From Macrostomum hystrix (taxonomy: Eukaryota > Animalia > Platyhelminthes), in NCBI GenBank assembly GCA_950097015.1, contig CATNEN010000001.1, forward strand, positions 18,538,001 to 18,602,000: a DNA stretch of 64,000 bases, given 5' to 3'. The position numbers and the translations under genes were made by a program. Every line of letters begins with the position of its first letter. Within the stretch, counting starts at the first letter, position 1. Below the pieces are notes generated by a model. The model was not told the DNA's origin, searched no databases, and saw nothing but the letters and a program-made list of their open reading frames with translations. Positions 36,518 through 63,720 of the stretch are shown here, piece by piece.

Positions 36518-36552
36518 GCCTTAATTTATCTTATAGTCTGCTGAACATTAAC

Positions 36553-36568: not shown

Positions 36569-36575
36569 TTGCAAA

Positions 36576-40272: not shown

Positions 40273-41125
40273 CCCGGTGTAAAAAACATCGTCCGGCGGA
40301 CGATGATTTTTTGGGTCCGCCGGACTCTGCTTTTCGGTCTATTGTACGCATAAATATAGTCGAAAAGACGTCCGCTTTCGGCCGACGGACGACTAATTTC
40401 GGACCAGTGTAAAATGTTGTGAATACTACTATTAGTAGTGTAGCTCTGAATAAAAATTGTATTCATTATTGTCTCGTATTATTTTAAATAACTAATTAAT
40501 CACAAAAAAAGATTTTGATTTTCTTATTAAAAAGAAATGTTATCGCACGTTTTTATTTTAAGTTGCAAATAAATTACTCATAGCATAAATTCATAAAAAA
40601 TTATATTTGCAAGTTATAAAAGAAGAACAATTTGGAATAGAAATAAGCAAGACAGAACTTGCTACAAAATTAGGATTATAGAAAAACTACAGGCAAAAAT
40701 AAAGAAGGCAAAGTATAAAATACAGATAAAGTATTAATAATAATTAAATACAACGCAAACAGACAGCATAGACACTGGGTCAAAATATTAAAAATTTAAA
40801 TACATAGCAAGGAATATCATTGTGTACTATACTTAACGTAAATAACTTTGCGCGTTTCTAAAGCATGTAGGAAAATAATCGAAAGGAAGACGAATAAGTT
40901 TTATACGTCACGAACACTACAATTTTTATCTGTATAAATCAAGACACAAATACAATTTGGAGTATAAATTGTGCCACTTATGTCCCATTTTAGCTACTCA
41001 CTAGCAAGTCGTTAGTAGTAGCATACTAATTATAGTTTCGAAAATAAACAAATGGTGGGACTTATGACAATTATGACAGATTTATAAATTTATAATTTTA
41101 TTATTAATATTAATAATAAATCAAT

Positions 41126-44100
41126 TTATAAATCTTCTGAGCTGCTGCTCGCAACTCGAGGGCGCTTTCGAGCCGCCGTAGCTCCAGATGCCGCAGCTCC
41201 GACCGCCGCATCTCCAGATGCTGCAGCTCCGGCCTCCGCAGCTAAGGCCGCTGAAGCTCCGGCCTTCGCAGATCCGACCGCCGCACCTCCAGATGCCGCC
41301 GCCGCGTTGCGCTGCCCGGCACTGATTCGCCGCTCCTTTGCCGCCTGCCTCTCGGAGGCGTGTTTTAGGAGGTTTTTTAATTCCCTCTCCACGTCGGACT
41401 CCGATGGTCGACTTTGCTGGTGGTAAAGCACGGCGACAGCGTCTGAAAGTGTTCAGAGTCTCAATGACGAAATGCTCCTGATATGATTGCCTAATTTGCC
41501 CATAACAATTTCATGTTGCCTTACAATAATAATACTAATAATAGTGACACTAGACCCAAGGGCCAGTGCAGGTGTTGGTGTATCAAGCACACTAGCAGGT
41601 GGGGACTGCATTCCCCGGCTTTCTCGGACACCTGTTGACAGCCGCGTGTCAGCAGTGGAATTTATTTTTTCCAAACAAATCGGCAGCATTCGAACCCCAC
41701 TGAATAGCCACACAAAACTGCTTTATTACACGCCAGTCGGAATTATTATTAACCGACGAAATGTCGGCGCTCATTTGCAGCTGAGTAGACTGTGTGCACA
41801 TCAGGGCAAAGCAGCTTGCCAACGGCTGCACGAATAGTTCTAGACTAGGTCGGGAATTTGCATGAATATGATGAATATCTTACCTAAGAAAATACTGCTG
41901 AAATTGCGGAATCCCAGCTGGTCGTCCGACAACTCCACGCCTGGTTCGGCCTCGCGCAGTCTCGCCGACATGTGTCGTCCTGACCAATTGACAACACACT
42001 GCATGTTGCTAGCAAGGCACTTGTTCAGCATGCGCTTGCATGTGTCGTGGACTGTGCTTCCCCGACAGCTACGGAGGCATTCGGCCTGTTTGAGGTTGAT
42101 TTAGTATATTTTTAGTTTTTAGTGTACTGTTAGTACACAAAATTTATGTGTACAGTGGTCTAATTTTTTTTAAATGGCTTAACTTGTAAAAAGTTGTGAA
42201 TACTACTATTAGTATTGTAGCAGTGAATTAAAAATCGTTCAAGACAAAAATATAATACTCACCAAACGCCCTTGTTGCACTCTGGAATTCCGGAAATTCA
42301 CGTAGTCACTCCAACTCGAAATCGGAGTGAAATCCGGTTGCCCAGCGTTGTTAGACCGCTGACCGAGCTGCTGCAAACCGAGCTGCTGCACACCGAGCAG
42401 CCGCTGCTGCAACTGCTGCATAAATTCAGTCAGTCTCGCCGACATAGCATCAACTGACGAATTCATGTCTCTCCGGAGAGCTTCGACAGCGGCATGTGTC
42501 TCATAGCATCTCCTAGCAGTCAGGGTCGCCAAATAAATGGCCGTCTTCTGGGATGCAGGGTCCAGGCCGCTTGTTCGCAGCCGATTCTCAATTCCGGCCA
42601 TAGAGGAGCCTGGTTGGCCCAGGAATCTGCCATAGTCTTTTCACAATGTTAAGTGAAGGGACGGGTTGATAAGTACGAGATAAGTTTGTAACTAAGCAAG
42701 TCTCTTTGCGAATTACAAATCAATAAGATTGTGAATGGATCAGTGAGTCTGAATGATTGAATAGTGAGTCTACAAATGAGTTAATGCAGAAATATTATTT
42801 TAGAACCTTACCATCAGCCACTTCCTGATGGAATGAGATGCTCGGTGAACGCTGAATGTCTGATGGCCCCGAGCATTTTGGCACAGTAGTGGCGTCATCA
42901 TCTGTGAATGTAAGCAGAGTGGTGGGGAAATAAATTAGACTCTGAATCACAGTTTGTAAATCTGCTAGTAATTGATTGAGTAAGTCTGAATGAATGAACC
43001 TGTGAGTGAGTCTGTCAATGAATTGAACAGTGAGTTTGTGAATGAATTGAACAGTAAGTCTATAAATTAATGAACCAGTGAGTCTGCGAAATTCTATGAA
43101 TCCGTGAGTTTTTGAATACGTGTTTGTATGGAACCAATTTAGTCAAAGTATTATAGACTCTTACCATTAACAATAACAATCGGAGATTCCATTGCGCCGG
43201 TTGAATGCAGGTGGTTCTCCTGGTCCTCCAGCAGTCTTTGAGGTGAGGATGTGGACGTGGATGGGATCAGTGTCGCGGTGCTGCTAAATCTTAGCAGCTG
43301 CGGTCGATCAGGCAGAGGAGCTGCTTTGGAGCCCACATTCCTCCGATTTATGGCCTCGGAAGCTTCCCTCTCGCTCTCCGAGGTAGTAATGTTCTGTTTT
43401 AATTTTAGAAGGAAATGTGGTGATATGCAGTGTAATGAATTGTGTTAGAAGTCAAAACGAACTCCAATTTTAAGTGTCTCGGCTCTCGCTGGGGGCAGAC
43501 AGAAAAGGAGGAACAGAAGATCAGTGTGTGGAGCCCAACCAGTCAGGCTCAACATTATATTCGAGGGCTCTGGGCCCAAGACAAAGCAGGCTACAACAAG
43601 CGCAGGGGAAGGCATGTGAACGCACAACGGAAAACTCGGTGCGCAGTGCCCATTAGAAAGCGTACAGCGCCCATGAGTCAGTCAGTGGCCCTACAAACTG
43701 AGTACAATTGCAAGCAGACAGTACAGTGTTAGTTTTGTGCGGTCAAAGTTCCGGGGTAGCTATTCTGCTTATTGACAAACTCAATTTGTGTGGATTAAGT
43801 CTGTTAGTGAATGAACCAGTGAGTCAGTAAAAGAATAACTGAGAGCGTGTGTAAATGAATTAATCAGTGAGTCTGTGAGCAAATGAATGAGTGCGTCTTT
43901 GATCTGTGAATGGTTTAAGCAGTGAGTCTACTTGGATAACTAATAAAAATGTCTGCTGTTTATTAATAGACAATCTGTTATAGTACAATTTGTAGTGTCC
44001 TACCTGAATGGCTCCTAATCGGTTTCGGTGGCGCCCGGCATTCACCCGACAAACGGCCTTCAGCAGCGAGTCCACACTTTTCTTCTTGATGGTGCGCATT

Positions 44101-44348
44101 CTCCGCAGGTGAAGGACGGTTGGCGTGCTGTCCACTTCTGGGTCAGTGACCACCTGGAGGAGAACGGCGTCATACCATTCGCCACTGTACTCTGCCCTCA
44201 CCTCAATTCTCGTTGCTGAGTACAGTTCCGAAGGCTCCATGCTGGCCCAGTCAAAATCCTGGTATTCACCAAGCATAATCTCTGTCTCATCTACTTCTAA
44301 AATTTCACCATCATTAGAGAAAAATACAATATAGCGATTGGACTGCAT
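41126..44348 (-). CDS. DUF4806/BEN-like accessory protein, ~509 aa. Exons 44348-44004, 43393-43165, 42901-42812, 42609-42263, 42085-41884, 41442-41126
   Basis: Six exons with GT-AG borders total 1530 nt and stay in frame; coiled coil followed by GSTVHDTCKRMLNKCLASNMQCVVNWSGR...SESDVERELKNLLKHASER (DUF4806/BEN-like pattern); beta-rich N-terminus. Confidence 0.75.
41530..41855 (-). mobile_element. SINE family B, 5'-truncated, in the last intron of the DUF4806 gene
   Basis: Closely matches 61030-61360. Confidence 0.85.
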
Positions 44349-44413
44349 TTTAAGCTTTTATAATAGCTTCAATATAAGAATTTGAGAGACTAAGTAGCTA
44401 GAAGTTTTCTAGA

Positions 44414-44745
44414 GACTATAAAATTGCTCAACAAAGATTGATAAACTATTCATATACGAGCTACGTACGTGCAGATATGCTCCGTTGGGACCCAGCCTTC
44501 TCAAAGCTTTACTGGACAAGAGCCAATGCAAGAGCGCGTAATCCGACAGAGCCAATCCGGTTAGAGCGAGCCGAGCCAATAGCGAACAGCTCGAGCGAAT
44601 GACTCGACAAAGGCAAGCTAGCTTTGTAGTAATTGAATTTATTGTAATTTACTTACCTTAAGTATCTGTAATTTCCCGGGTATATTTACTGTAGTTTGCG
44701 TTTTAATATCGTTGATCACCATCTACTAGCGTTGATGGTGATTCT
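44414..44745. promoter_or_regulatory. CCAAT-box promoter module, copy A (upstream of the DUF4806 gene)
   Basis: Three GAGCCAAT boxes near 44520, 44548 and 44573; homologous to 45941-46325. Confidence 0.6.
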
Positions 44746-45545
44746 ATTTTTCCGTTGCGATGCAATTATTACAATATGCATGATAGTCTAGCTTATCTAG
44801 CAATCGTTGCAATGATATCATTACAATCTGCCGGTCAGAACTCAGAACTCATGATTACTAGACTTGCTAGACACGCCTACTATGCATATGCTGAGCCTAC
44901 AGCAGCTAACAACAGAATTAATTTCTTTCATGTGTTTTTTTAACTAAATGGCTAAATAATTAGGAATGCGTTATCAACAATGTATGCTGTCTTGTAACCG
45001 TCTCTCATATACACGGTTTGTACGACTATGATTAAGAACTATGATTCCGATTCAGACTGTCCTGATTCAGACTGTAATTGTCCTGATGTCCTTTGATTTC
45101 TCAATAAGGTTTCACATACATACTAATACTATGTATTGTATATATACAAAACTATTCCTTATTGTCAAGTCAACAACTATACGGAAATCCAACCAACCAG
45201 TGCCAGTGGCACACAAAAAATTGAAGACGGCGATGAAAAATTATGGCTTGTGTATTTTTTGTGTAAATGTGTATTTTTTAAACATTTATTTATTTAAAAA
45301 TGTGCGCGTGCGTATTTGTGCATAAATATTGAACACAACATTAATACAGTTATTTATAAATTATTATTGTCAATTATCGCCACTTAAATTGGTCAGCCGG
45401 TCCCGGTCAGCCGGCCGATCTGCTGCCCAGCAGCGATTCACAGGACGCCCGGCTGCGATATAAAAGATGGGTTTCAGTTTCATTTAGCTTATTAGCTCGG
45501 TTATCAGATCAGATGCGTTAATAAATATTCTAATAATAATAATAT

Positions 45546-45884
45546 TCAAAAGCGACTACTCACATATGGGTCAAGGCCCGCCGCTATGCGGCGAGCTCTG
45601 GCCATCCGAATCATGGCCAGCTTCATAAGACGCGTCGCTTCATTCAGCGCGTCCTGTGCCCGGCGCCGTGCGGGCGTCCAGGCCACTGTCGCCGCCATCT
45701 CTTCCGCAGCGACGAGGCATGACTGGATGGCCTCATCCAGTTTGGTGGTGGCATTGGCCAGAATGTTCGCCCGGAACTGTGCCGGGAACAAATGAAAGTT
45801 GAACTCATTGACATCAGCATCCAGGCCATGGACATGGCATTGGCTGCTGTTGATGTTGTTGCTCTCGCTGCTGTTGCTATTCAT
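45546..45884 (-). CDS. Orphan ~112-aa helical protein (transposon cargo)
   Basis: AAAAAAATG start context, GC-rich coding-like ORF in AT-rich surroundings, directly downstream of promoter copy B; no family recognised. Confidence 0.55.
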   Translation of the reverse strand: MNSNSSESNNINSSQCHVHGLDADVNEFNFHLFPAQFRANILANATTKLDEAIQSCLVAAEEMAATVAWTPARRRAQDALNEATRLMKLAMIRMARARRIAAGLDPYVSSRF

Positions 45885-45940
45885 TTTTTTGTTGAAGGAA
45901 GTTAGTTGAGGGAATTTTAGTGATCTGGTGGGAGAAGTTG

Positions 45941-46325
45941 CAACTATAAAATTGCTCAACAACGATTGATCATCTATTTATATATGAGCCATACGTGCAG
46001 ATATGCCACAGGTGGGTCCCCGCCTTCTCAAAGCTTTATTGGACACAAGCCAATGAAAACTTGCCCGCGCCGCGCGGAATCCGACAGAGCCAATCCGAGC
46101 CAAGAGCGAGCCGAGCCGGCTCGAGCCGAGCGAGCCGAGCCGAGCCGAGCCGAGCTGAGAGCCAACTCGACTCGAGTCTCGACAAAGGCAAGTAAACTAG
46201 CAATTTTAGTAAACTAATGAATTGTAATTTACAGACCTCTAGGCTCTAGTAATATTATTTTCCCGGGTTAATTTACAGCAATTTTCTTTTCAATATATCC
46301 CATCTATTAGCCTTTGATAGCCATC
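45941..46325. promoter_or_regulatory. Putative bidirectional CCAAT promoter module, copy B (between the orphan ORF and the transposase)
   Basis: CCAAT/ATTGG boxes and a (GAGCC)n expansion at ~46096-46165; divergent ATGs at 45884 and 46339. Confidence 0.6.
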
Positions 46326-46338
46326 ACTTACTCACAAA

Positions 46339-49091
46339 ATGTCTAAAAGACGGACTAAAGGCGACACGAACCCACGACGAAAGTTTCAAAATTGGCTCAC
46401 AAAGAACCTACTTGACTTTGCGGACAGTGATGTAGAAATGGACCAAGTGAGTTTTCAATTTTTATTGAGTTTCTATTTAAGTTTCATGCAAGTTTGTGAA
46501 GAAATTTGACGAGGGTGGGGCAGACAGGCAGGATTGACGGGGTGCTAGGTTTGATTGATTGCCTCGAATTTTATGCACAGTTTCATCGTCGTCTGTTTTT
46601 CCTCTTTATTTTCAATCAGGAGGTTGCATCTTCCCATGCAGATGGCGCAAGCCTCATTCCACCTGAGGATTCGCGGCCTGATTCTACCAGTGCCGGTGTC
46701 AATGCCTGTGACCCCATGCATTTATCAGCTAATAACGAGGCTTTCGACGAAAGTGAGGCTGATGAGTTCGACTACGCCGATCACTTGTCAACAGATGCGG
46801 AAGATGGGGACCCAGGCCAAACAGCAAAGCCATCATTGGAGAGCCTGAATGAGGAGCTTCTAATATTCTTCGTTCGTTACAACATCTCACATCGAGCGAT
46901 GCAGTTCCTGCTCAATGCTCTAGTCTGCCGAGGCCTGCCGGTCGCAAGAACAGTGCACCGTCTGCGCAAAGAACCTTCGGCTGAAGCAGTACAAATACAA
47001 AAGTACACCATGGGTAGTGGACACTTTTCCTACATCGGTATTGCTTCGAACCTGGCGTTCCTGATTCGCGGCGGCATGTTGGATCTTGGAAATCCGGAAG
47101 CCACCCAGAATGACAGAGCAAGGTTGGAACTGGACATTGATGTTGGCATTGACGGAATGCCGATTTACAATTCGTCAAACTACGCGGCATGGCCTATTAT
47201 CGTTAAGTTTTCGAGATTCTGTCGCCCACTTCCTGTTGCTGTGTATGCTGGGTTGGGTAAACCACCTCTTACCGAGTACCTGGCCGACTTCATCAAGGAG
47301 CTGCAGTCCTTCATGACCGACTTTGTCGAAGTTGATGGGGTGCTAATCCACATCAGGAACATCACGTTCATTTGCGACACGCCAGCGCGGTCCTTCATTA
47401 CCGCAACTTTGGGCCACAACGCACATCACGGCTGCCCCTACTGCAGAGTGGTAGCCCAGACGGTCGACCGGCGAATAGTCTACCCTGTCGAAGTCGGAGA
47501 GTGTCGCACAGCTGAGGATTACCGTTTTAATAGGTGCGTGTGTGTGCATGGGGTTGTGTGTATGTGTGTGTGCTTTTGCGAATTTTGTATACCAGCTTAT
47601 ACATCTGTATATGCCTACATGGCAGGATATCTGACATGTTTTTACATGTCTACGAACCTGACCTGACGTTGTCTTAATACGTGAATCAGTTAATCATATA
47701 AATATGCAAATGGCTGTATCGCGATATGGCAACTAAAGAAATGTGATTCCGATTCAGACTGTCTATATAATGGCTGTCCTTTTAAATCTCAAAAATTATT
47801 CACATACTTGCTATATACAATATAAAATATACAATATTCAATATACAATAATATACAATAGCTCGATTCCCGACTCCACTGAAAAAATTTGTGTCCTTTA
47901 GCAAGACACTTAACTCTGCAGTGCTTCGGTTCACCCAGCTGTTAAATAGGTACCAGCATTAGCTGGGGTAATTGAAGGTGGGTGTATGGCGTCCTCCCAG
48001 TCCATGGACTGAACAGCCGTACGCAGCCTTCAGATGCGCCGCGCATTAGCTGCGGCTGTGCTGTCGATTGGGGCAGGTGTAATCAATTATTATTATTACT
48101 AGTCTTTATCGCCAACAACTACTGCAGGGAATCCAACCAGCGGCATGAACCAAGTCCGCTCCTGTCACTGCCAGGCTTGCAACTACCTGATGCTTGCCCA
48201 CCGGAGCCAATGCACCTGCTCTTTCTAGGCGTCGCTAGGCGTCTTTTCACCTTCCTCTTTGCGGTGGATGACGGACGGCGGCGCAAAATTAGGCCGGATC
48301 AAGTTTCCGCACTTTCTGATTTTGCCGAATCACGTGCTATATATACACCGACAAATTTCCAAAGACGCCCTCGGAGAATCGACCGAGAACTCGGACATTT
48401 CAAATCCAGCGAGTTCCGCACGTGGACTTTGTATGTGGGCCCGTATTTTTTTCGCAAATTTCTGCCAACAGAGTTGTACAGGCATTTTCTTCTATTTCAC
48501 TTTGCCTGTTATGTTCTTTGCTCTGATAGCCCACAGCCTGAACTTCTTGATGCCGCTGAATCTGCCATGAAACTTTTTGTGTATGACGCAGCTCAACTGT
48601 ACGGCAACAGTTTCATGACTCACAATGCTCACGTTCTTTTGCACTTGTTTCAATACGCGAGGCAACGTGGAAATGTGTCCAACTTTTCGGCCTTTCCATA
48701 TGAGAACTACCTCTCTCACTTAAAGGGTCGCCTTCGAGTAACGCGCTTTGTATCATCTTACTTGCTAAATCAAATGCTTTCACTTCGCGACTTACTAGTC
48801 AGCAACCCAATTCAGCCCATTAAGTACTCTGTTAAGATGCCCGACAACTGTTGCATCGTGAATGGCTCAGTTGTTCGGATTACTTCTGTTCTTGGTGACC
48901 AAGTAACTGGCAATATTCTGTCGCTGCAAAAGGACTTGTATGACTATCCATATCCGTCCTCAAAACTGGGTATCGGAGTCTATTGTAAAACACGATCTTT
49001 TGTTACTGGCACTCCCCACAGGAAGTGCTTTCTGTTCCCGCGCAAGACCGGAAAGGCATGGCTGGTGATTCCTCTCTCTGGTGTTGATTAG
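46339..49091 (+). CDS. EnSpm/CACTA (Tnp2-like) DDE transposase, ~661 aa, apparently intact. Exons 46339-46446, 46620-47533, 48128-49091
   Basis: GIDGMP...WPI (D1), FICDTPARSF (D2), GHNAHHGCPYC, PEPMHLLFLGV, FKSSEFR, HNAHVLLH, SAFPYEN (E); 1986-nt spliced frame without stops. Confidence 0.9.
47862..48100 (+). mobile_element. SINE family C copy in transposase intron 2
   Basis: B-box remnant CTCGATTCC, TGTGTCCTTTAGCAAGACACTTAA...CACCCAGCTGTTAAAT.GGTACC core, (TTA)n tail; matches copies at 54865, 60215 and 60680. Confidence 0.8.
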
Positions 49092-49912
49092 TGGAATCGC
49101 ATTCTGTTCCACCCTTGTCAGCAAATGTAATTTTGACTGTTAATGTTTTGCATCAATTTGACTACAGACATAAAAATGTACAAATGTAAAAAACTGTATA
49201 CTCCCTGTATCCCTGTAAACTGTATACTGATATTGAGCAGCAAAGTCCGAATAGCAAAATAAATACCGGGAATCGGGAATGATAAGCGATAAGGTTTATT
49301 TGAGGCGGTGTGTGGTCTCCGATAACAGGAGTCCATTTTTCTTGCCGTCCGTTGCCTGAAGAACGCGTTGACACTTTAATGCCAAAACTTTGTTCTTTCG
49401 CACATTTTTACGAAATTCTTAAATCGAATTTAATTTTATAAGGCATTCGAAAGCGTGTCATTATCTTCGTAATTGCTTTTATTGTACGCGTACTCATTGA
49501 CTTAGAAGCTTAGTGTTTTAGCAACAAGCATGCTTCCAGAATCACTTAATTCCCATTAATTGAAGTGACTGCTAGAAACGGTAAACATCTAGCTAGTAGA
49601 GCTCTTCTGCATGGTCACAGGACTTGCACGGCCAAAAGAGGAAGGAGCAGCTAAAAAAAACTGATAAACTGATGACTGGTCTCCCCACCACAGACAGAAG
49701 GAAAGCCGGCCTTATCTTATCCATTTGGTCTGTGCTCCCAGAGAGAGACTTCTAGAAATAACAACTTCTAGAAACTTCTAGAAATAAAAAGTCTGTGTGC
49801 TCCCCTCCCCACCCCACTTGATCGGTCCCACCCAAACCCGTTCAGAGTCATTACACACTACACAGGAAATTATTTTGCGATTTATTTTCATCACAAAAGT
49901 ATTTAATATTTC

Positions 49913-51366
49913 ATGGATATAAGTGATCAGTGGCTAATATCTGACTGCGGAAGTGCAGACACAGCAGCGCCCGGTTTAAAAATTCGTTTAAAGCGCGTAT
50001 CGACCGCCCTCAATGAGGTGAGAATTCAGAGGCAGCAAATTATTTGAGATTGTAAAAAGTTTACAACTTTTCCTTTATTCTTTTGTTATATTTCTATTGT
50101 ACACTCACGTATTGCACGCATACATTGCCAGACTTCCCAACGCGCTGATCAGGTCAGGGTGACCTGCGAAACTGGCCCGGGACTTATAGTCCGATTCAAG
50201 CGACATTCTTGCGCAATTCCATCAACGGCTGAACTTCAGGTGAATGATAATGTATGTTACCTGCCTGTTCAATAACTTGTCCTTCTAAGTATTCTCCTTC
50301 TCCCCTCTGCAACTATAATCTCCCACTATAATCTTTGCATGTAGGCCCCGCGTCTTAATTTCTGTTATGCACATTCTCATGTTTCTGCATGAGAAAATAT
50401 TAAAAATGTTTAATTTTTCAGACTAACAAACGCGCTGTCCCTGAGGTCAACGTCGAATTATCCTTCTCCGACAGCGAGGAAGAGGGCGAAGGCAACTCAC
50501 GCGTGGATCAATCTTTACGAATCGCCCTAGCAGTATGTCCATTAGAGGTTCGTCAATCAATTGAGTGCGGTTAGATGGTGTGGCTGTATAAAGCTGATTT
50601 TGGGGCAAAGTTTCCTTTTCTGTAATCGTTTTTCTTTGAGTAACTTAATGAGAGAGGAGAGGATTAAGAGGGAGTAAAAAGTAGAGGCCGATTAAGTGAG
50701 ATGAGATGCAAACGAGATGTCAGCAAGCAAGTGAAATGTGAGAGAGGCGATGGAGAAAAGGGCGATTTAGAAGCATGAAAAAAAACAAATTAAATCGTGT
50801 TTAACTACACCCCCGCACAGCCTTTGCCTGACCCGACCGTTAAGAAGAGGCCGGCTCAGAGGCTCAGCCGATCTAGTGTCGATTATCGTCCCCCGACATC
50901 CACTAGAGATACAACCGAGCGCATACTGGGCATCAACGGGAAGACAGACACCGCGATCGCTGTTGCACCTGCGGGCGAGAAGGGACTGGGCGCCTTTGCG
51001 AGAATCAACCTAGCTGCGGGGGCGTTTGTCGATCAATTCGCCGGAATCCTGCTGAACGAACAGGAAGCGATTAGACGCGAATGTGAACCTAACTCCGACT
51101 GGATGCTATTTGAGTTTAAAGTTAACGGCAAATTATGGGTAATTGACGCCAGCAACAGTGACGGATTGGGAAGGTACCTGAACCATTCTTCTACTGCTCC
51201 TAACTGTAAAGCAAAGCTCATTATTATCGACCAGGGGCTGCGACCCGTCATTTATTTCGTGACAAATAAATATGTTGCAACGGGCACAGAACTGACGTTC
51301 GACTATACGACTGGTAGAGGTATCGATAATGATGATCTTGTGAAGAACCCATGGCTTCGAGACTAG
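49913..51366 (+). CDS. PR-Set7/SETD8(KMT5A)-like SET-domain methyltransferase, ~290 aa. Exons 49913-50017, 50132-50239, 50422-50532(or 50547), 50821-51366
   Basis: GEKGLGAFA, FVDQFAG, EAIRRE, MLFEF, WVIDAS, LGRYLNHS, GTELTFDY and a C-terminal NPWL as in SETD8 HPWL; the three upstream exons are phase 0 with GT-AG borders; AATAAA at ~51464. Confidence 0.85.
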
Positions 51367-52319
51367 AAAGACACGCATGTTATTATGACTCGTCGCTTAG
51401 TTTATTTTGCTAAATCTTTAATCATGTAACAATCATGTTTAATTATGTATATTCTTTATTACAAATAAAGCAATGGCGCATTGAGAAAATGGTTACTTTT
51501 CTGAAAAGTTTCTTGGAATTTGTGTCATAATTTTTTTAATCGCTTAATGTACTCGTACTCATTGGCATAATAAAGTAATAAAGCAAACAGGATGCTCCAG
51601 AATCATCAAGCAAGTAAATATAATTTAATAGTTTTATAACTCAGCAAATATCTTTTCCTAACAGACTGTACATATCTGTACAAATCTGTACATATTTTAA
51701 TTTTTCGAGACAAATAAAAGAGTATTTTTAGCGGCAGAGTTCTGCGGAAGTTCGGAACTGACTCGCGCCCCCAGTCTTTTAGGGATCTAAAACCAATTGA
51801 AGTGAGTCACAGAACTTGAACAGCCAAAAGAGGAGGGAGCAGCTCAAATAAAAACTGATAAGAATATTTAGAACGTAATGCATGTGGGTCTCCCCACCAC
51901 AGACGGAAGGAAAGCCTTATCTTATCAATTTGGTCTGTGCTTCCCACCCGATCAGTCCCACCCGATGTGCCACGGCGTTCCTGCATGGCTTTCGAAGTTT
52001 CGGAGAAGGGCAATGGGGAATTTATGAACAGGGACTATTTTACTTAGATAGACTTAAAGTTGTTTTAAAAAAGCTTGAAAACTTCATGATGAGCTTGAAG
52101 ATGAACTTTCCTTCATCATGAGGAAATCATTTGAAATCATGAAACCAACTCAGTCGTGTAGGAAATCATTTCTAGGTTGATTTTCAATTGAATCCGACTC
52201 GATAAACTGTGCTCAAATCTATTGGGACACCGACGACAGCCATATAGTACTGACATAGTCAGAGTTAAGATAAACTTTTCTAGGTGACTTTCCAGGTTAA
52301 TAAGTTCGAGTCAAATAAA

Positions 52320-54865
52320 TTTGATGATGATCCCCCAGTTAATGATGATCCCCCAGTTGATGATGATCCCCCAGTTGATGATGATCCCCCAGTTGATGAT
52401 GATCCCCCAGTTGATGATGATCCCCCAGTTGACAATGATCCCACAGTTGACAATGATCCCCCAGTTACCAATGAACCCCAGTTGACAATTATCCCCCAGT
52501 CGAAAATGATCCCCCAGTTGACAATGATCCACAAGTTGACAATGATCACTCAGTTGATTATGATCACCCAGTTGACAACGATCCCCCATTTGATGATGAT
52601 CCCCCAGTTGATGATGATCCCCCAGTTGATGATGATCCCCCAGTTGATGATGATCCCCCAGTTGACCATGATCCCCAAGTTGAAAATGATCACTCAGTTG
52701 ATTATGATCACTCAGTTGACAATTATCCCCAGTTGACAATGATCCCACAGTTGACAATGATCCCCCATTTGACAATGATCCCCCATTTGACAATGATCCA
52801 CAAGTTGACAATGATCAGTCAGTTGATGATGATTCCCCAGTTGACAATTATCACCCAGTTGACAATGATCCCCCATTTGATGATGATCCCCCAGTTGACA
52901 ATGATCACTCAGTTGATTATGATCACTCAGTTGATGATGATCCCCTAGTTGATGATGATTCCCCAGTTGACAATTATCCCCCAGTCGACAATTATCCCCC
53001 AGTTGACCATGATCCGCCAGTTGACAATGATCACCCACTTGATAATGATCCCCCAGTTGACCATGATCCCCAAGTTGACAAAGATTCCCAGTTGACAATG
53101 ATCACTCAGTTGACAATGATCACTCAGTTGATTATGATCACGCAGTTGACAATGATCCCCCATTTGATGATGATCCCCCAGTTGATGATGATCCCCCAGT
53201 TGATGATGATCCCCCAGTTGATGATGATCCCCCAGTTGACCATGATCCCCAAGTTGACAAAGATTCCCAGTTGACAATGATCCACAAGTTGAAAATGATC
53301 ACTCAGTTGATTATGATCACTCAGTTGACAATGATCACCCAGTTGACAATGATCCCCCAGTTGACAATGATCCCACAGTTGACAATGATCCCCCAGTTAA
53401 CAATGAACCCCAGTTGACAATTATCCCCCAGTCGAAAATGATCCACCAGTTGACCATGATCCCCAAGTTGACAATGATTCCCAGTTGACAATGATCCACA
53501 AGTTGACAATGATCACTCAGTTGATTATGATCACCCAGTTGACAATGATCCCCCATTTGATGATGATCCCCCAGTTGATGATGATCCCCCAGTTGACCAT
53601 GATCCCCAAGTTGACAAAGATTCCCAGTTGACAATGATCCACAAGTTGACAATGATCACTCAGTTGATTATGATCACCCAGTTGACAATGATCCCCCATT
53701 TGATTATGATCCCCCAGTTGATGATGATCCCCCAGTTGATGATGATTCCCCAGTTGACAATGATCCCACAGTTGACAATGATCCACAAGTTGACAATGAT
53801 CACTCAGTTGATTTTGATCACTAAGTTGATTATGATCTGCCAGTTGACAAGTATCCCCCAGTTGATGATGATCCCCCAGTTGACAATGATCCCACAGTTG
53901 ATTATGATCACCCAGTTGACAATGATCCCCCAGTTGACAATAATCCCACAGTTGACAATGATCCCCCAGTTGACAATGATCCCCCATTTGATTATGATCC
54001 CCCAGTTGATTATGATCAGCCAGTTGACAAGTATCCCCCAGTTGATGATGATCCCCCAGTTGAAAATGATCCCACAGTTGACAATGATCCACAAGTTGAC
54101 AATGATCAGTCAGTTGATTATGATCACTCAGTTGACAATGATCACCCATTTGACAATGATCCCCCAGTTGACAATGATCCCACAGTTGACAATGATCCCC
54201 CAGTTAACAATGAACCCCAGTTGACAATTATCCCCCAGTCGAAAATGATCCCCCAGTTGACCATGATCCCCAAGTTGACAATGATTCCCAGTTGACAATG
54301 ATCCACAAGTTGACAATGATCACTCAGTTGATTATGATCACGCAGTTGACAATGATCCCCCATTTGATGATGATCCCCCAGTTGATGATGATCCCCCAGT
54401 TGACCATGATCCCCAAGTTGACAAAGATTCCCAGTTGACAATGATCAACAAGTTGAAAATGATCACTCAGTTGATTTTGATCACTAAGTTGATTATGATC
54501 TGCCAGTTGACAAGTATCCCCCAGTTGATGATGATCCCCCAGTTGACAATGATCCCACAGTTGATTATGATCACCCAGTTGACAATGATCCCCCATTTGA
54601 TGATGATCCCCCAGTTGATGATGATCCCCCAGTTGATGATGATCCCCCAGTTGACCATGATCCCCCAGTTGACAATGATCCCACAGTTGACAATGATCCA
54701 CAAGTTGACAATGATCAGTCAGTTGATTATGATCACTCAGTTGACAATGATCCCCCCAGTTGACAATGATCCCACAGTTGACAATGTACCTCCCCTGTTG
54801 ACAATGATCCCACAGTTAACAAAGATCCCCCAGTTGATCATGATCCCCCAGTTAACAATGATCCC
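52320..54865. repeat. 2.5-kb 18-bp satellite (GTTGACAATGATCCCCCA)n inside the transposon
   Basis: About 140 units with recurring variants; diagnostic blocks recur at ~52460, ~53390 and ~54200. Confidence 0.95.
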
Positions 54866-55070
54866 TGAATTGCTTCAGTTCAACCAGCTGTTAAATGGGT
54901 ACCAGCATCAGCTGGGATACTTGAAAGGTGGGTGTGGCGTCCCGCCAGTCCATGGACTGAACAGCTGTACGCAACCTTCAGATGCGCCGCGCCATAGCTG
55001 CAGCTGTGCTGTCGGCTGCACATCTGGCCCAATTGGGGCAGGTGTAATCAATTATTATTATTATTATGGT
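54865..55070 (+). mobile_element. SINE family C 3' half abutting the satellite
   Basis: Matches 47920-48100. Confidence 0.8.
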
Positions 55071-56626: not shown

Positions 56627-57637
56627 ATGAATTTTGATAGCCGAAATACAACTGAATCCCTAAAGGTAAATCTATATGATTCGAGACAGTGACTGGTTGT
56701 TCTATGGGAGACAGTGGGTATCTACTAGGAGTATATCAAAATCTCGTAGATTTTCTAGGTAGCTAGCTTATAGCTAGAAAGACAGTTACTATAGCAACAC
56801 TTGATTGCGGAGAGTGGCTAGATTGTCTAGCTATGGGACACGGTGTCTAGATTGATTGTTCACGGGAGACAAGCTAATCGCAAACCCATTTATTCTTACC
56901 AGCCCGTCGATGACCTGGGCAGTCTAGACAATTTGGACTTCGCCGTGATGCGCTGCGAATTCAGTGACCTCCAGTCTTACGAAAGCGCTGCCCTCTTCGA
57001 TTTGTACAAGCCGGTTGCCAACGAAGATGACACTGGGGCCATGAGCGCATCGGAGTCCATCTGGTCCATCGGACAGCAACAGCATCCGCAGCAGCGACTG
57101 AATGCTTCGGCGATTGATTGCTCCCTTTGCTGGGTTCATTCGCTTGATCCGCCCACTTCGCATCTCCCAACGCATGTGCAGCCGCCAGGCGTCATAAAAA
57201 GAACAAGGAAGAAGCGTGCTGGCATCGGTTAGTGTTTTTGAGCTGCGAAAATTTGGGATTTGAGAATCTTTAGTATTTAACAACAATTAGCTATCAAAAC
57301 TTAGCATTGCCCAACCTCAGACAGGAATTTTTGGCTGTGGGAGTTTCTGTACCAGTTACTCGAAACTCCGTCTGTCGCTGACCTGTCGCCACAATGCTTG
57401 CGCTGGGAGAACAAGCTGGAGGGCATTTTCCAAATTCTAAACCCAACCGGCCTAGCAGAGGCCTGGGGCAGTTACAAGCGGCGGGACATGAGCTTTGAAA
57501 CGATGAAGCGAGCGCTGAGGCATTACTACGAGGACAAGCTTATCACCAAGACCCACCCAAGAGACAAGCACTTTTACAAATTTCACTTCGACCACGAGAA
57601 AGTAAAACTTTTTTTAGAAAAATTACAGACAAAATGA
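56627..57637 (+). CDS. ETS-domain transcription factor, ~226 aa. Exons 56627-56665, 56903-57227, 57321-57637
   Basis: WLWEFLYQLL...LRWENKLEGIFQIL...LAEAWGSYK...MSFETMKRALRHYY...FYKF is a complete ETS domain with both invariant Arg residues; 681-nt in-frame splice; duplicated TCTATAAATAG TATA-like motif at 56411-56434; AATAAA at ~57664. Confidence 0.88.
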
Positions 57638-57949
57638 CATGTAAATCAGAAATCCCATAATTTAATAAATACCTCAGAAATCCCTACATTGCCCTAGAAA
57701 TCACATGATCCAGACAATGACTCAGAATTACATCACGGATTGCCTGATTGTCAGTTGCGCTACTTCACTCATGTAAACTATTGTTTCTTACGGCCATGTT
57801 TTGTTCTGTTTTCTTGTGTTTTCTCATATTGTCCATGCATGACTTATCATCTGTTATTAAGCCTTGATTTTGAAGACATGTAATTGAGACCGACTGTTTC
57901 CTATAAAAGTATGATATCTACGAGTACTTATAAATGCTATACTATAAAT

Positions 57950-59370
57950 AAACTAATAGTTGCTGCACATTATTTCATAAACTAAAAAACAAAAAGCACA
58001 CTTAACGTTGTTGCGAGTGCAGCCGTGGAACTCTATTGACATGACAAGGAGTTCGTGAATGTCGCTGTCGTTCTCTAACCTGCTAAACTCGGCCAGATGC
58101 AGCTAGCCGGGACGCTGGGCAAACTTGTGCTCGACGCTGACTGAAATTCCCCATGCTGCAGAGGGTTAGATCAATTCATTTATCTCATTTTGAATTCCTA
58201 ATGTGAATTTAAACTCAAACTGCTTAAGAAGAAAGTAACTGCATACCTGTACATCCGAGGTAAGAGCTAAGAGCGATGTCTCGTCGGTACATTTTCTGCC
58301 GACCACCTTGCAACACACGTCTCAGGATTTTCTGGAACGGGGAAAACTAAAATTGGAATTTCACAGTATACAGTTTTTGCTTTCGGTTGAAATTCGGTCA
58401 ACTATGAATTTCAGCTACATTTCTGCAAGCCTTTAAGGGACAGATGCCAGCTATTATATCAAGTCATTCTAAGAAGCTAATTGCATGCATCTTAAGTACA
58501 TCTTAAACACAAAGCAAGGTGCAATAGCTCAATAAATATGTTTGTTGTCGTGCAAAGCTAAAGCAATTTATAAATACTTAATGCATGCAGTGCATGTAAT
58601 AAATAAATGAGTGTGAAATAAATATAAAGACACGAAGGCATAGATATCCAAAAATCCTATGGCGCTGCAGTGCAGGATCGATCCTATACTCTGCTCATCA
58701 TCTCATCATGCTCAGAATCAGTGCTCTGAAAGGCGAAAAGGAGTTTTAAGGCACAAATATCATTATTTAGTAAAAACATGCACCTTTAATAGTTGCTTTA
58801 TCCAATGGCAACAAGGGCATGCATCCAACTCTAAGCGAATGCTTGGAGTTTGCTTATGGAATGAGCTGCATGGTTAGACACGAAGTGCGGCACGTACGAC
58901 AAAAAGACTAACGTTATAGCATTTAGCTACTATATCATATTAAAAGTGAGTGCATGTTGCTTTATTGTAATATTGTGTTTGCATTTGTGGTGTGAATTGC
59001 AGCTTGTTAAACGACGTGTAGCTAATGGCTAAAAAGAGATTTAGTTTTACCATGCACCTAGCACCAATATGAAGATTTTAAAGGAAAGTAAAACCTGCAA
59101 AACCGGGTATATCTTTTTTAGGATGTTTAAAAGCATATTTTAATAATTGTTAAAAAACTGTCAAGAATTGCGAAGAACTATTGGTATAAAAAAGCATAAA
59201 GTGGTTTAACAAACCTTTTTATTTATTTCCACCGGAAGGTAGGTGCCGGGGCGGGGTGAAGTTGGTAGATGCCCCGGCACCTACCTTCACCTTCCAGACC
59301 ACCACACGTTGGCCCTGGCCCACCGTGTGTGGCTCAAGAAGCCACGGTGAGCCAGGGCCCTGCTGCTGCG

Positions 59371-59427
<57 letters not shown>

Positions 59428-59434
59428 TATCCAT
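57950..59434 (-). pseudogene. Possible spliced polyQ orphan gene or pseudogene. Exons 59434-59285, 58331-58247, 58155 onward
   Basis: MDNHH-polyQ exon with a GTAG donor and in-phase acceptors; the third exon hits a TAG after 17 codons although the frame stays open beyond it. Confidence 0.35.
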
Positions 59435-60214: not shown

Positions 60215-60420
60215 GTGAGACAATTTGTGTCCTTTAGCAAGACACTTAATTTACTCTGCATTGCTTTAGTTCACCCAGCTGTTAAATGGTACCAGCATTC
60301 GCTGGGATAATTGAAGGTGGGTGTGGTGTCCCCCCAGTCCATGGACTGTACAGCTGTACGCAGTCTTCAGATGAGCCGCGCAATAGCTCCGCTGTGCTGT
60401 CGGCTGCAAATCTAGCCAGT
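60215..60420 (+). mobile_element. SINE family C copy
   Basis: Matches 47885-48065. Confidence 0.8.
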
Positions 60421-60679
60421 GACCCCAGTGTATACTTGAGTTATTTGGTCTGGTATTTAGCAGCTAGGGGTCGGCAATGAGCCAGTGGGCCACTTACAGA
60501 ACCTAAAAGACGACGGCTGTATTAAATGTAGGAATCTGAGAAAGGGCAGGGATTAGACATAGGATAGATGAGGCAGGGGGGAATTAGGGTGGGGGTTTGA
60601 TTCCTAACTCTACTGGTACAACTTAATATGCCCTTTGGCAAGAGGCCTAACTTGCTTGCTTCAGTTCACCCTGTTATAA

Positions 60680-61020
60680 AATTAATAATAATCCATTAAC
60701 TAATTACAACTGTCACTATGGGCCAGATGTGTAGCCGACAGCACAGCTGCAACTATTGTGCGGCGCATCTGAAGACTGTGTACGGCTATGGACTACAGCC
60801 AGTACAGTCCCTCGACTGGGGATGGCTACACCCACTATAAGTTACCACAGCTAATACTGGTACCCATATAATAGCTAGCTGAACTGAAGCAATTCAGAGT
60901 TAATTGCCTATCTTAGAGACACAAATTTCAAATTGTTTCTTAAAGAAACAGGAGTCAGGAATCGAACCATCAACCTTCAAGATGCGAGTCTGACGCTCTA
61001 ACTGCTGGGCTACAACCCAG
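60680..61020 (-). mobile_element. SINE family C, full length with tRNA head
   Basis: Reverse complement GGGTTGTAGCCCAGCAGTTAGAGCG...GGTTCGATTCC (A and B boxes), followed by the family C body and an AT-rich tail. Confidence 0.8.
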
Positions 61021-61029
61021 CTGTAAAAT

Positions 61030-61420
61030 ATTAATAATAATGACACTAGACACAAGGGCCAGTGCAGGTGTTGTGTGTCAAGCACACTAGCAGGTGGGGA
61101 CTGCACACCTAATATACTCCCCGGCCCTCTTGGACACCGGTTGACAGCCGCGTGTCAGCAATGGAGTTTATTTTTTCCAAACATATCGGCAGCATCCAAA
61201 CCCACTGAATTGCCGCACAGAACTGCTTAATTTCACGCCAGCCGGAATTATTATTCCCCGATGAAATATCGGTACTCATTTGCAGCTGAGTAGACTGTGT
61301 GCACATCAGGGCAAAGCAGCTTGCCAAAGGCTGCACGAATAGTTCTAGACTAGGTCGGGAGTTGAACCCAGGACCATCTGATCCAGAGTCCGACACCTTA
61401 CAGACCGAGCTATCCGCCCC
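61030..61420 (-). mobile_element. SINE family B, full length with tRNA head
   Basis: Reverse complement GGGGCGGATAGCTCGGTCTGTAAGG...GGGTTCAACTCCC, body shared with 41530-41855, (TTA)n tail. Confidence 0.85.
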
Positions 61421-61431
61421 TCTGTTTATCC

Positions 61432-61620
61432 AAGCTAGCTGTAAAATGGGTACCAATATTAGCTATTTGAACTTAAGGTGGGTCTGGCATCCCTCAGTCC
61501 ATGGACTGAACAGCCATGTGCAGCCTTTAGATTCGAGTGTATGCTGCACAATAGCTGTGGCTGTGCTCTTGACCATACTGCACAATTGGCCGGATAGGTA
61601 TAATAAATTATTAATTACTT
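61432..61620 (+). mobile_element. SINE family C diverged 3' half
   Basis: GCTGTAAAATGGGTACC...CAGTCCATGGACTGAACAGCC. Confidence 0.7.
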
Positions 61621-62694
61621 AGCCTATATATAAATATAATATATGTGCTATGTTATTTATTTTTCTGCTCTGTTTAATACATTTAAAACCAACAAGCTAA
61701 CCAACAACTCTCTTAACCACCTTATCCTTTTCAAACAGGTTAAGGAATGGCAAGATTCTCAATCTGCATGTACGAGAGCTTACTGGAACTTCTACTGTAT
61801 CTGGTGCTTGGCCAACAAGAGCTAGCCTGAATGCTGCTGCCATCCAAGATTATGAAAGGCATGATTGACTATAGCTCACTGTTAACTGACAGATCTTTGC
61901 TTCTTAATGCCTAAGCATGACCAAAACTGCATGCCACATACCTAGGCTAAACTAGCTAATAAGTAATAAAACATTTTTCATGATAATTAGTTCTCATATC
62001 ATATAGCTATATAACAGTTTCTTTCTTTCACTGTTTCAATAGAATAGGCACTTGTGAAAGCCCAAGAATAAACAGAAGTTAGACTTGAAGTATCTAGAGC
62101 AGAAAATAGGAGTTGTAACCTAGCTATATAGTATATAGGCATTTAAGCCTCACTTGGTACAATTCATTATAATATGGTGCAAAAATATGTATTTTTTGCT
62201 AAATAAAAGTAAATGTACACTATGCGCTTTAAAGTAACTCTCTTTTTGTAAAAAATATTCCTGTGGCTTCATAATATATCCTAACTAAGCTACAATGACA
62301 TTGCTGATCAAATAGACTTTCACTTAATAATTAACTTATATATAGATAAACCACAAAGTGATGGCGAGTTTGATATCGGTGTTTATATTCACTTTGTCTT
62401 GTCTAATGAATTTCAGTGTCTTACTGTGAACAGTTTTTGAGAATTCGTTGATCGAATCGAGAATTCTCACGTACATAATAGCTAATTAATTGAGGATCCG
62501 GTCAGGTCAAAGTGAAAGTTTGCAGTGCATGCGCTTTCAAAAACTTTGCTCAGGCCATTCTTTCGCTTTTAAGCTGCAATTTGAAACTAAAAAAATTGAT
62601 TCTGACTTCTTATTAAGTTTAGTGCAACTGGCTTCTTCTGAGACAAAACTTTTTATTGCCTGCGGTCAAAATACATGTGTTTGTTAAATTTTAC

Positions 62695-63720
62695 ATTCAC
62701 GTCGCCTTTTTACGGACTCAAATCGGACGGAAAACGGACCATCACAATTATGCGATTTCTACCTATTCTATATACTCCTAAATACATAGCTATTCGAGAT
62801 GTAATGCAATTAAAGCAGTTGCCGCATTATCAATCATTTTATACGGCTATTGAGCGGTTTACTGCAGACGGCCGGAATATGCATGGCCGACCAGAAGATC
62901 GAATTGTATACACGCTCAGAATAGTTTGATGATTCCACTATATACTCGTAAATTGCTTCACTGATGCACACAAATTTTATTTCCTAGCTCTCACTGATCA
63001 GTAAAACAGTAAGTATATGTGTAAATAATTTATATCTAAAAACTAAATATTACGATTATACAAACCAAACATTTAACTTGCTGCACTACTAACGTTTAAA
63101 TACGAGTAGTATTTCAAGCATGTTAGGTTCTGTACAGTAGATCAAAAAATTACCTTTTGCGGACTGGAATCGGACTGTTGGAATTACACAATTTTTCATC
63201 TTTTAAATGCATAAGTAACGGAAAATAAAGCCTTTTATGACGTTTTCAGCAGCTAACTCAAGAATTTTTTTATGGAACATCGTCCTCCTCGTCGCCCTTT
63301 TGAGGACTCAAAACGGACCGCGGACGCGTCGGCCTTTTGCGGACTAATTTCGGACTGTACGAATTACACATTTTTTCATCTTTTAAATGCATTTAGAACT
63401 GAAATCAAGGCCTTTTAAGACGTTTTTAGCAGCTAACTCACGAGTAATTTTTTTTGGAACATCGTCCTTCTCGTCGGCCTTTTTCGGACTCAAATCGGAC
63501 CATTTTGGAGCCGGTCGACGCGTCGGCCATTTTCGGACTAAAATCGGACTGTACGAAGTACACATTTTTTCATCTTTTAAATGCATTTATAACTGAAATC
63601 AATACCTCTTAAGACGTTTTCAGCAGCTAATTCGATTTTTTTTTAGCTGAGCTGACATAGGGTTAGATCGGACCGTAGGCGTCGAAAAGACGTCTTTTCG
63701 ACGATGCTTTTTACACCGGG
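62695..63720. repeat. Subterminal repeats of the CACTA right end: CGGACT-N4-TCGGAC motifs, ~190-bp tandem units and a 24-bp palindrome
   Basis: Motifs at ~62713, 63160, 63303, 63340, 63485 and 63535; perfect palindrome CGTCGAAAAGACGTCTTTTCGACG at 63680-63703. Confidence 0.85.

Follow-up and report, generated by a model that had tools for sequence, protein, structure and literature searches.

Our preferred reading, to which we give a probability of roughly 0.5, is that a 23.4-kb EnSpm/CACTA transposon lies within a broken BEL retroelement, encodes, in genes predicted to be intact, its transposase, a SETD8-like methyltransferase, an ETS factor and a probable partner of the DUF4806/BEN type, and likely uses the methyltransferase as an accessory enzyme to alter H4K20-type methylation for its own benefit. 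Positions 40273–63720 of the window (the whole 64-kb stretch of DNA analysed) almost certainly represent a single insertion event of this element, which is delimited by the following features.

36552..40270, + strand: host BEL/Pao retroelement, left part; several stops of its own and frame changes break the ORF
40271..40272: left TSD copy, AA
40273..40293, + strand: left TIR, starting CCCGG and followed by ~190 nt rich in CGGAC/GTCCG motifs
63143..63643, + strand: right subterminal array, three CGGAC-rich direct repeats at 180–194 nt spacing
63700..63720, − strand: right TIR
63721..63722: right TSD copy, AA
63723..64000, + strand: same BEL pol, right part, with a stop at 63938–63940

The original prediction described matching 21-bp TIRs; their identity is 20/21, so that the TIRs are near-perfect but not perfect. 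The predicted AA duplication was found immediately outside both ends, and the 13-mer CCCGGTGTAAAAA occurs once per strand in the window. The left flank matches Pao Peptidase_A17 (Pfam, E 7e-8). Against a neighbouring BEL pol, the left and right flanks correspond to residues 401–514 and 548–606, respectively, in the same order. The TIRs, the AA on each side and the collinear BEL pol flanks bear out the earlier view that the two ends belong to one insertion. Moreover, a public read contig (set X3, 39300–40424) spans the left junction without any difference from the window.

The transposase gene has the following predicted structure.

46339..49091, + strand: predicted transposase, 3 exons (46339-46446, 46620-47533, 48128-49091), 661 aa

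As judged from its sequence, the element is an autonomous-looking cut-and-paste transposon of the animal EnSpm/CACTA (CMC) kind. The transposase, expected to be intact-looking, has an open model with DDE motifs. It carries D214, D289, CPYC 308–311, H509-x3-H513 and E533, the residues of the CMC definition used for the motif comparison (PMC12730594, in its available part). Pfam returned DUF4218 alone (E 2e-4; it scores 21.4 bits, short of the cut-off of 27), with no match in exon 2. The relatives of the transposase are 28–35% identical, and one homologue (P0004) carries PF13960. The protein aligns with CACTA-type proteins and shows no Harbinger domain in Pfam, which places it outside HarbingerS. 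The transposase profile had no match in the PDB, and the viral contigs searched contained no relative of the transposase or the SET protein. The short TIRs (20/21 nt) and the 2-bp AA duplication fit the TSD of 2–5 bp required of EnSpm/CACTA elements. Many animal EnSpm families have CCC ends and 2-bp TSDs. The ends of the window element are CCC..GGG, whereas most EnSpm/CACTA termini are 5'-CA..TG-3' in the source text available. Animal CMC(T) elements, as described in the available parts of PMC12730594 and PMC6431247, share with the window element a DDE transposase, C(2)C and H(3-4)H motifs, short TIRs, a 2-bp TSD and subterminal repeats.

All gene models in the element contain GT-AG introns only and no internal stops; 10–43 stops occur in the two alternative reading frames of each model, and AATAAA or ATTAAA lies 24–167 nt downstream of the stop codons. 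The exon counts agreed with those claimed (transposase 3, BEN-like 6, SET 4 and ETS 3) in models that are predicted and fitted, the acceptors of BEN-like exon 6 and ETS exon 3 and the donor of SET exon 3 having been chosen to avoid stops. A crude exon-chain scan gave no convincing additional gene.

The second gene and the two orphan ORFs are as follows.

41126..44348, − strand: predicted DUF4806/BEN-like gene, 6 exons (44348-44004, 43393-43165, 42901-42812, 42636-42263, 42085-41884, 41442-41126), 518 aa
45546..45884, − strand: orphan ORF 1, single exon, 112 aa, GC3 0.68, no family
58100..59434, − strand: second orphan, a candidate by eye, with a poly-Q first exon (59434-59285) and two small exons; coordinates approximate

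The six-exon DUF4806/BEN-like gene was recovered as an open model, but its family label is statistically weak. The DUF4806/BEN-like part is C-terminal, and the candidate domain is spread over exons 4–6. No single exon matched Pfam, including PF16064. A profile built from three related sequences ranked exon 5 first among the 1165 ORFs of the window, yet with an E of only 0.11; two relatives in this profile score DUF4806 at E 0.03 and 6e-4. The exon 5 profile had no match in the PDB, a structure search with its predicted fold (pLDDT 69, two helices) found no match, and the Atlas search gave nothing usable for exon 5 or orphan ORF 1. The N-terminal exon of a second gene of this type lies directly behind the transposase in 6 of the 9 related loci, and a DUF4806-scoring exon is present in 2 of the 9. 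Because related loci carry such a gene behind the transposase, the BEN-like gene is probably what animal EnSpm elements normally have as their second gene, and we no longer count this putative DNA binder as part of a special cargo. The metagenomic relatives L001–L007 also have a similar second gene; it lies behind the transposase in the relatives, whereas in the window element it is upstream and on the opposite strand.

In regards to the two orphan ORFs, the first is clear, but the second is only a by-eye candidate, and none of 106 further ORFs exceeded the Pfam cut-off (one weak match, E 0.009). Orphan ORF 1 has a weak match of 27–28 aa to the second gene of L001/L002. Its assignment as the N-terminal exon of the relatives' second gene was rejected, the profile giving E 0.02 among 5 models and a rank not near the top of the 1165 ORFs. 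The same profile found no match at the N-terminus of the BEN-like gene.

The methyltransferase gene lies downstream of the transposase.

49913..51366, + strand: predicted SETD8-like gene, 4 exons (49913-50017, 50132-50239, 50422-50547, 50821-51366), 294 aa

The four-exon SETD8-like gene was confirmed as an open model with a SET domain (Pfam, E 9e-13). Like SETD8/KMT5A (PR-Set7), the protein is a minimal SET with a PWL tail and without post-SET cysteines, and it keeps the NHS motif and the terminal Tyr; it differs in being transposon-borne and only ~30–35% identical to SETD8 (at most 43% to any protein found). The alignment extends to the C-terminus with SETD8 chains only, and KMT2D, aligned over fewer residues, gives a slightly better score; the SETD8 preference of one alignment (A3) is partly circular, its rows having been chosen for the tail. 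In a quick tree of 65 rows, the SET protein clusters with a SET fragment of Macrostomum lignano and a protein of 349 aa, away from the majority of SETD8-like matches (SH-aLRT 90). A word-seeded homologue search for SET retained 0 of 97 candidates, a blank that is uninformative because the domain is common, and a single-sequence fold (pLDDT 36) was left out of the analysis. The protein has no recognisable DNA-binding or reader domain and would therefore need a targeting partner.

Phe186 and Phe273 occupy both active-site Tyr positions of SETD8. Of 150 relatives, 146 carry Tyr at the first position and not one carries Phe at both; such a SET is what is new here. The two active-site tyrosines that fix mono-methylation in SETD8 are absent from the element SET. 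We take the first position to be Tyr245 of SETD8; changing this residue to Phe reportedly leaves the enzyme with little activity towards H4K20 that carries no methyl group. Tyr-to-Phe at the first position raises the methylation level in EZH2 and G9a, as does Tyr-to-Phe at the switch position of SETD8 (PMC3868588, in its available part); the second SETD8 position is number 334 (PMC3529403). From the alignment, Phe/Phe would predict a changed product specificity or weak activity of the element SET, and it could equally mean a dead enzyme. A catalytically weak decoy, which would bind H4K20 nucleosomes or a SETD8 partner and block host silencing or repair marks, is in keeping with Phe where 146/150 relatives have Tyr and with the reported low activity of the Tyr245-to-Phe mutant. 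We regard such a decoy as very improbable, given the intact cofactor motifs and the same change in EZH2 and G9a, which yields a trimethylating and not a dead enzyme (available part of PMC3868588).

Other copies were sought among public read contigs placed on the window, which cover positions left of 52250; X1–X3 belong to a single study, possibly with the source sample among them, and X5 comes from a second study. In X2, the BEL-flank contig (depth 90) ends at 40301, 29 nt inside the TIR, which points to several copies sharing an end, as in assembly graphs. The 7 X2 contigs listed inside the element have depths of 329–847 (SET 642 and 587; transposase 692–847), or 4–9 times that of the flank, contig depth being no copy number. 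In X1 the flank is absent and the transposase and SET contigs have depths of 10–12; in X3 the depth of the element (2.4–8.2) is not clearly above that of the flank (3.7). Among the contigs listed, divergence from the window was 0.44% over 6370 nt in X1 (8 contigs) and 0.39% over 5175 nt in X2 (7 contigs). These values suggest that the left half through SET belongs to a young multi-copy family, ~0.4% divergent. Neither a further flank nor a second TSD turned up among the contigs listed. SET is very probably a gene of this transposon family, the contig depth suggesting that it travels with the family. Furthermore, X5 contains SET pieces that are 85–87% alike, and an X2 contig of depth 298 aligns with exons 3 and 4 of SET and has another intron between them, which indicates that diverged sister SET genes exist. 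Neither SET nor ETS was present in any of the 9 related EnSpm loci, which are 1.3–13.3 kb long.

Among the 40 variant rows listed (358 more exist), those in coding exons alter 15 codons, 11 of them non-synonymously and 4 synonymously, which is no sign of purifying selection. Variants that look neutral in this way would suit an ordinary two-gene EnSpm that captured host SETD8 and ETS genes, drifting without a role in a Pack-CACTA-like manner. The loss of a nearly invariant Tyr from SET, the minisatellite, SINE-like repeats and duplicated promoter pieces of the interior, and the observation that accessory genes often move passively from one transposon to another (PMC12730594, in its available part) would agree with such a capture. 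We nevertheless consider it rather unlikely: SET and ETS are complete genes that have introns and polyA signals but are at most 43% alike to any protein found, which implies that they have long been open; X2 and X5 contain sister copies of SET that have diverged; and SET retains NHS, the terminal Tyr and the PWL tail. That SET acts on chromatin for the element is, in our analysis, slightly short of an even chance.

The ETS gene and the repeated stretches of the interior are given below.

44415..44733: duplicate, 71–79% alike, of the intergenic promoter-like stretch 45943-46314 (between orphan ORF 1 and the transposase)
51806..51944, + strand: second copy, 78% alike, of the region 49614-49739 that precedes SET; a search downstream of it found no intact gene
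52327..54865: 18-bp minisatellite, 141 copies, frameshifted, no single ORF
56627..57637, + strand: predicted ETS-domain gene, 3 exons (56627-56665, 56903-57227, 57321-57637), 226 aa
60216..61613: short interspersed repeat cluster; related copies at 41531-41858, 47863-48066 and 54856-55066, two intronic

The segment at ~55–63 kb is AT-rich and holds the SINE cluster, and the 2.5-kb minisatellite lies between this segment and SET. Contig depth is very high at the two short interspersed repeat copies covered.

The three-exon ETS factor proved to be an open model with a clear domain (PF00178, E 7e-21). Its closest PDB match is ETV6, and the conserved Trp residues and the two-Arg recognition helix RALRHYY are retained. 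The word-seeded homologue search for ETS retained 0 of 17 candidates and, the domain being common, is uninformative. The putative ETS site SCGGAAGY was observed 4 times in the element against 1.5 (5/100 shuffles, borderline), and three other patterns gave nothing. The family might consist of the left 12 kb and the ends, the ETS segment having been gained by this one copy through nested insertion or a rearrangement; the AT-richness, the SINE cluster and the minisatellite separating the segment from SET would fit such an entry. It is distinctly unlikely, since the 25 longest of 78 inverted pairs include no inner terminal repeats around ETS (the long pairs are SINE copies), the ~0.4% distance between copies leaves little time, and the GC, GC3 and CpG of ETS resemble those of the other element genes. 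We consider it reasonably probable that ETS is a gene of the transposon family.

In our preferred reading, the transposase and its BEN-like partner would form the core machinery, as in the relatives, and the partner may bind the subterminal repeats rich in CGGAC, in the manner of TnpA in plant Spm. The SET protein, judging from its active site, would be a later-step (di- or tri-methylating) or weak enzyme and not a copy of the host SETD8, and would change H4K20-type methylation on chromatin to the advantage of the element. The ETS factor may drive the element genes in a permissive cell type. The CpG o/e values are 0.89–1.18 in the element genes and 0.81–0.97 in four host-like exons; because CpG is depleted in neither, histone marks would be a likelier target than DNA methylation. 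It is possible, but rather unlikely, that the element holds a self-regulatory kit made from host parts in a recently active family, with a BEN-like reader, a SETD8-derived writer re-tuned by the Tyr-to-Phe change of lymphoma EZH2 and an ETS switch that turns the element on. Such a kit would be the animal histone-level counterpart of plant TnpA/VANC, in the first DNA transposon known with an ETS gene.

Compared with the 1–2 ORFs usual in animal EnSpm according to the available source text, the window element is 23.4 kb long and has at least 5 genes, with SET and ETS added. En/Spm families of Chondrus crispus are 16–20 kb long with 4–5 ORFs (PMC6431247, available part). The red-algal Plavaka elements (EnSpm superfamily; PAG1-3) are giant CACTA-clade transposons with accessory genes including SET, and modification of their own chromatin has been proposed; they differ in their red-algal hosts, in that PAG2 joins a DNA adenine methylase to SET in one fusion protein while PAG3 is a ParB-oxygenase, and in that ETS is not mentioned in the part of the text available (10.1101/2025.02.11.637652). 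HarbingerS, Phytophthora MuDR and Helitrons carry a free-standing SET lysine methyltransferase gene, as here, but belong to other transposase superfamilies, with no transcription-factor cargo mentioned in the available parts of the papers citing them (PMC12730594, 10.1101/2025.02.11.637652). Plant Spm TnpA and VANDAL VANC are transposon-encoded anti-silencing factors, and the window element may likewise encode a regulator that could act on its own subterminal motifs; TnpA, however, is a transposase-derived tandem HTH protein confined to flowering plants and acts via DNA demethylation (10.64898/2026.08.24.746577, in part), whereas the host exons of the window show no CpG depletion. The available part of PMC12801592 contained nothing on EnSpm. 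No report of ETS cargo in DNA transposons was found in the literature searched, 'ETS domain' being absent among the matches listed. The expectation that no described family has this combination thus survives for ETS but not for SET, which has already been published as cargo, including in Plavaka of the EnSpm/CACTA clade, in the texts available.

To our knowledge, plants are the only organisms in which chromatin regulators encoded by transposons have been demonstrated to function, and there they act via DNA methylation. Outside plants, SET cargo has been annotated from sequence only, according to the available parts of PMC12730594 and 10.1101/2025.02.11.637652. A young, multi-copy element that looks intact and carries a SETD8-like gene is a direct test case for whether animal transposons write their own histone marks, and the Phe/Phe pair that nature has put into its active site lends itself to the study of SET product specificity. 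If the host is a macrostomid flatworm, transgenesis is reportedly established in a relative (PMC5730564). If ETS is a gene of the family, the transposon would spread a developmental transcription factor through the genome, and the counts of the ETS and SETD8 gene families in the lineage would be inflated by mobile copies.

The insertion at 40273-63720 (23,448 nt) is a genuine animal element of the EnSpm type, both giant and young. Its terminal repeats start with CCCGGTGTAAAAA and are identical at 20 of 21 positions. The ends pair as originally predicted, with a near-perfect match. This 13-mer occurs once per strand within the window, and the remaining inverted pairs of like quality are parts of longer repeats. 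The dinucleotide AA lies directly outside each end, in agreement with the proposed target site duplication. The left flank encodes BEL/Pao pol (Peptidase_A17, E 7e-8, Pfam). When the flanks were aligned separately to the pol of the intact neighbouring BEL, residues 401-514 matched the left flank and residues 548-606 the right flank in collinear order, which confirms the predicted interruption of a BEL pol; the host BEL carries further breaks unrelated to the transposon insertion. The left junction was spanned by a contig of the public run X3 (39300-40424) with zero differences, this contig possibly being from the source sample, and the right junction is known from the window sequence alone. 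CGGAC-type motifs are concentrated at both ends, where the terminal bins have 7, 5, and 9 per kb against 0-3 elsewhere, and the right end contains three direct repeats spaced 180-194 nt apart. The element would work like other CACTA elements in transposition.

The surroundings contain further repeats. An intact-looking BEL/Pao element with a 1036-aa pol ORF and identical 275-nt terminal repeats (32293-32567 and 36210-36484) occupies 32293-36484, directly left of the broken host BEL, so that three mobile elements are stacked: the intact BEL, the broken BEL, and the transposon within the latter. At 2688-4877, inverted arms of 186 nt, 95% alike and 1818 nt apart, flank a short ORF, probably representing another DNA transposon. 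Left of the retroelements, 472-21533 contains host-like exons that we take, by eye, to encode a PDK1-like kinase, an ankyrin-repeat protein, a nucleotidyltransferase-like ORF, a BAR/PH/RhoGAP/SH3 protein, and a WW/PTB protein.

The gene models of the element listed below are all predictions, with exons fitted manually to GT-AG sites.

Predicted genes of the element
41126-44348, minus strand: BEN-like gene, six exons, 518 aa
45546-45884: orphan 1, single ORF, 112 aa
Transposase: three exons, 661 aa; D214, D289, CPYC, H509-x3-H513, E533
SET gene: 294 aa; PF00856, E 9e-13
ETS gene: 226 aa; PF00178, E 7e-21

The motif set of the transposase agrees with the CMC-clade set in the excerpted text of PMC12730594, and five homologues with 28-35% identity were found among 4062 candidates. 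The models thus bear out the intact-looking three-exon transposase, the SETD8-like methyltransferase (with its SETD8-type PWL tail), and the ETS factor that had been predicted inside the element. Two orphan ORFs had also been proposed, of which orphan 1 was recovered and the second was not confirmed; none of the 106 further ORFs reached a Pfam cut-off. Orphan 1 and the transposase share a 450-nt intergenic stretch, which has a 71-79% copy ahead of the six-exon gene. A 54-nt left subterminal piece (40408-40460) is repeated (89%) at 42185-42238, in intron 4 of that gene. Two adjoining hairpins (arms of 18 bp, perfect, and 17 bp) lie at 59235-59359 beside a CTG x20 tract, within a candidate poly-Q exon.

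In regards to the BEN-like gene, the six exons of the prediction stood and its family is unproven. We compared nine related transposase loci from metagenome contigs, found by a scan of 21 of the 64 parts of the collection. In 6 of the 9, the exon just behind the transposase is exon 1 of a conserved second gene, and in 2 an exon scores DUF4806 below the cut-off (E 0.03 and 6e-4). A profile of three such exons placed window exon 5 at the top of 1165 window ORFs with E 0.11, and window exon 6 is similar by eye to the corresponding last exon of one locus, L002. DUF4806 is tied to the BEN fold in the excerpt of PMC10789644. Because of this link, the second gene in relatives, and the E 0.11 profile, the DUF4806/BEN label is plausible, and the gene is most likely a normal partner of the transposase rather than exotic cargo. 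Neither SET nor ETS was found in the nine loci (1.3-13.3 kb), of whose 156 ORFs 122 were scanned, those overlapping the transposase or in locus L008 being left out. L002 also contains a PHD-finger ORF (280-975) about 1.6 kb upstream of its EnSpm transposase, which may be an accessory gene for a chromatin reader.

Over 39300-52250, covering the flank and the left half through SET, we compared contigs from four public runs (X1-X3 from one study, X5 from a second). The X2 flank contig, which ends 29 nt inside the terminal repeat, had a depth of 90, and the seven listed interior contigs had depths of 329-847 (BEN exon 1, 576; transposase, 692-847; SET, 587-642), contig depth not being equal to copy number. 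In X1 the flank was not assembled and the transposase and SET contigs had depths of 10-12; X3 gave no marked excess of the interior (2.4-8.2) over the flank (3.7). This depth pattern suggests several near-identical copies, SET included. The listed contigs diverge from the window by about 0.4%, which indicates a recent spread. Diverged sister SET sequences occur in X5 (85-87% alike) and in X2. Among the 40 variants listed (358 more exist), those in exons gave 11 non-synonymous and 4 synonymous codons and 0 stops; these counts give no evidence of selection, with low power for copies so young. A minisatellite at 52327-54865 inside the transposon (18-bp unit, 141 copies, which would translate as DDDPPV in places) is nearly free of CpG and follows a second copy of the region upstream of SET; since the preceding bin has high X2 depth, the minisatellite may represent a nested repeat in its own right.

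The closest PDB chain of the ETS protein is ETV6, and alignment to it shows an intact recognition helix. A nested insertion could have brought in this gene; against this, the 25 longest of 78 inverted pairs include no inner terminal repeats around it, and its composition is like that of the other element genes. Strong sites of the ETS type occur at 49947 (in exon 1 of SET), 51744, and 56564 (63 nt upstream of the start of ETS), their enrichment in the element being borderline and limited to one pattern of four. That the ETS factor drives the element is speculation.

The SET protein was searched against 1.84 billion representatives, with 2271 hits. Among these, P0008 is the best relative with a single domain, at 43% identity, and the C-terminal part shares 51% identity with a 94-aa fragment from Macrostomum lignano; both cluster with the window SET in a quick 65-row tree (SH-aLRT 90, not starred), which would point to a flatworm host. 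P0008 (349 aa) has zinc-finger-like motifs at its N-terminus; its first active-site position is still Tyr, and its switch position is Phe. The sea-cucumber protein P0006 (KAJ8048607.1, 799 aa, named set-1) has eight SET-matching stretches and may be an array of tandem SETD8-like genes joined in error. The window domain retains NHS and the terminal Tyr. At residue 186 it has Phe, in contrast to the Tyr of 146 among the best 150 of the 2271 hits, and it has Phe again at the Phe/Tyr switch, residue 273; none of these 150 hits has Phe at both. Both codons are spanned by an X3 contig with no letter changed and by a 1045-nt X2 contig with two differences, one at 51527, so the pair is probably not a private mutation.

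The original prediction knew of no described family with this combination. SET cargo by itself is already described: excerpts report SET genes in HarbingerS and oomycete MuDR (PMC12730594), and in Helitrons and the red-algal Plavaka of the EnSpm superfamily, the latter with three accessory genes (10.1101/2025.02.11.637652). In regards to ETS, no 'ETS domain' paper was among the matches listed for the ETS and transposon literature searches. The element is similar to Plavaka and HarbingerS in carrying a SET gene, and differs in that its host belongs to another kingdom, its SET is of SETD8 origin with a Phe/Phe active site, and it encloses an ETS gene. Chondrus En/Spm families reach 16-20 kb with 4-5 ORFs (PMC6431247, in part). 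According to the excerpt of 10.64898/2026.08.24.746577, plant TnpA acts on subterminal motifs via DNA demethylation and is apparently confined to flowering plants, and accessory domains of various kinds occur among 962 Spm proteins.

By offset (query 46-164 against chain 614-728), residue 186 would correspond to EZH2 Tyr641. According to PMC3868588, EZH2 and G9a shift towards trimethylation when the Tyr at this site is replaced by Phe, and the mono-methylase SETD8 becomes a di-methylase through a Tyr-to-Phe change. By analogy, we predict that the window SET is a later-step methyltransferase. Alternatively, it may be a weak enzyme with a decoy role. At breaks, H4K20me2 serves as a docking site for 53BP1, and H4K20me3 is a mark of heterochromatin, so a later-step SET could help repair after excision or tune silencing.
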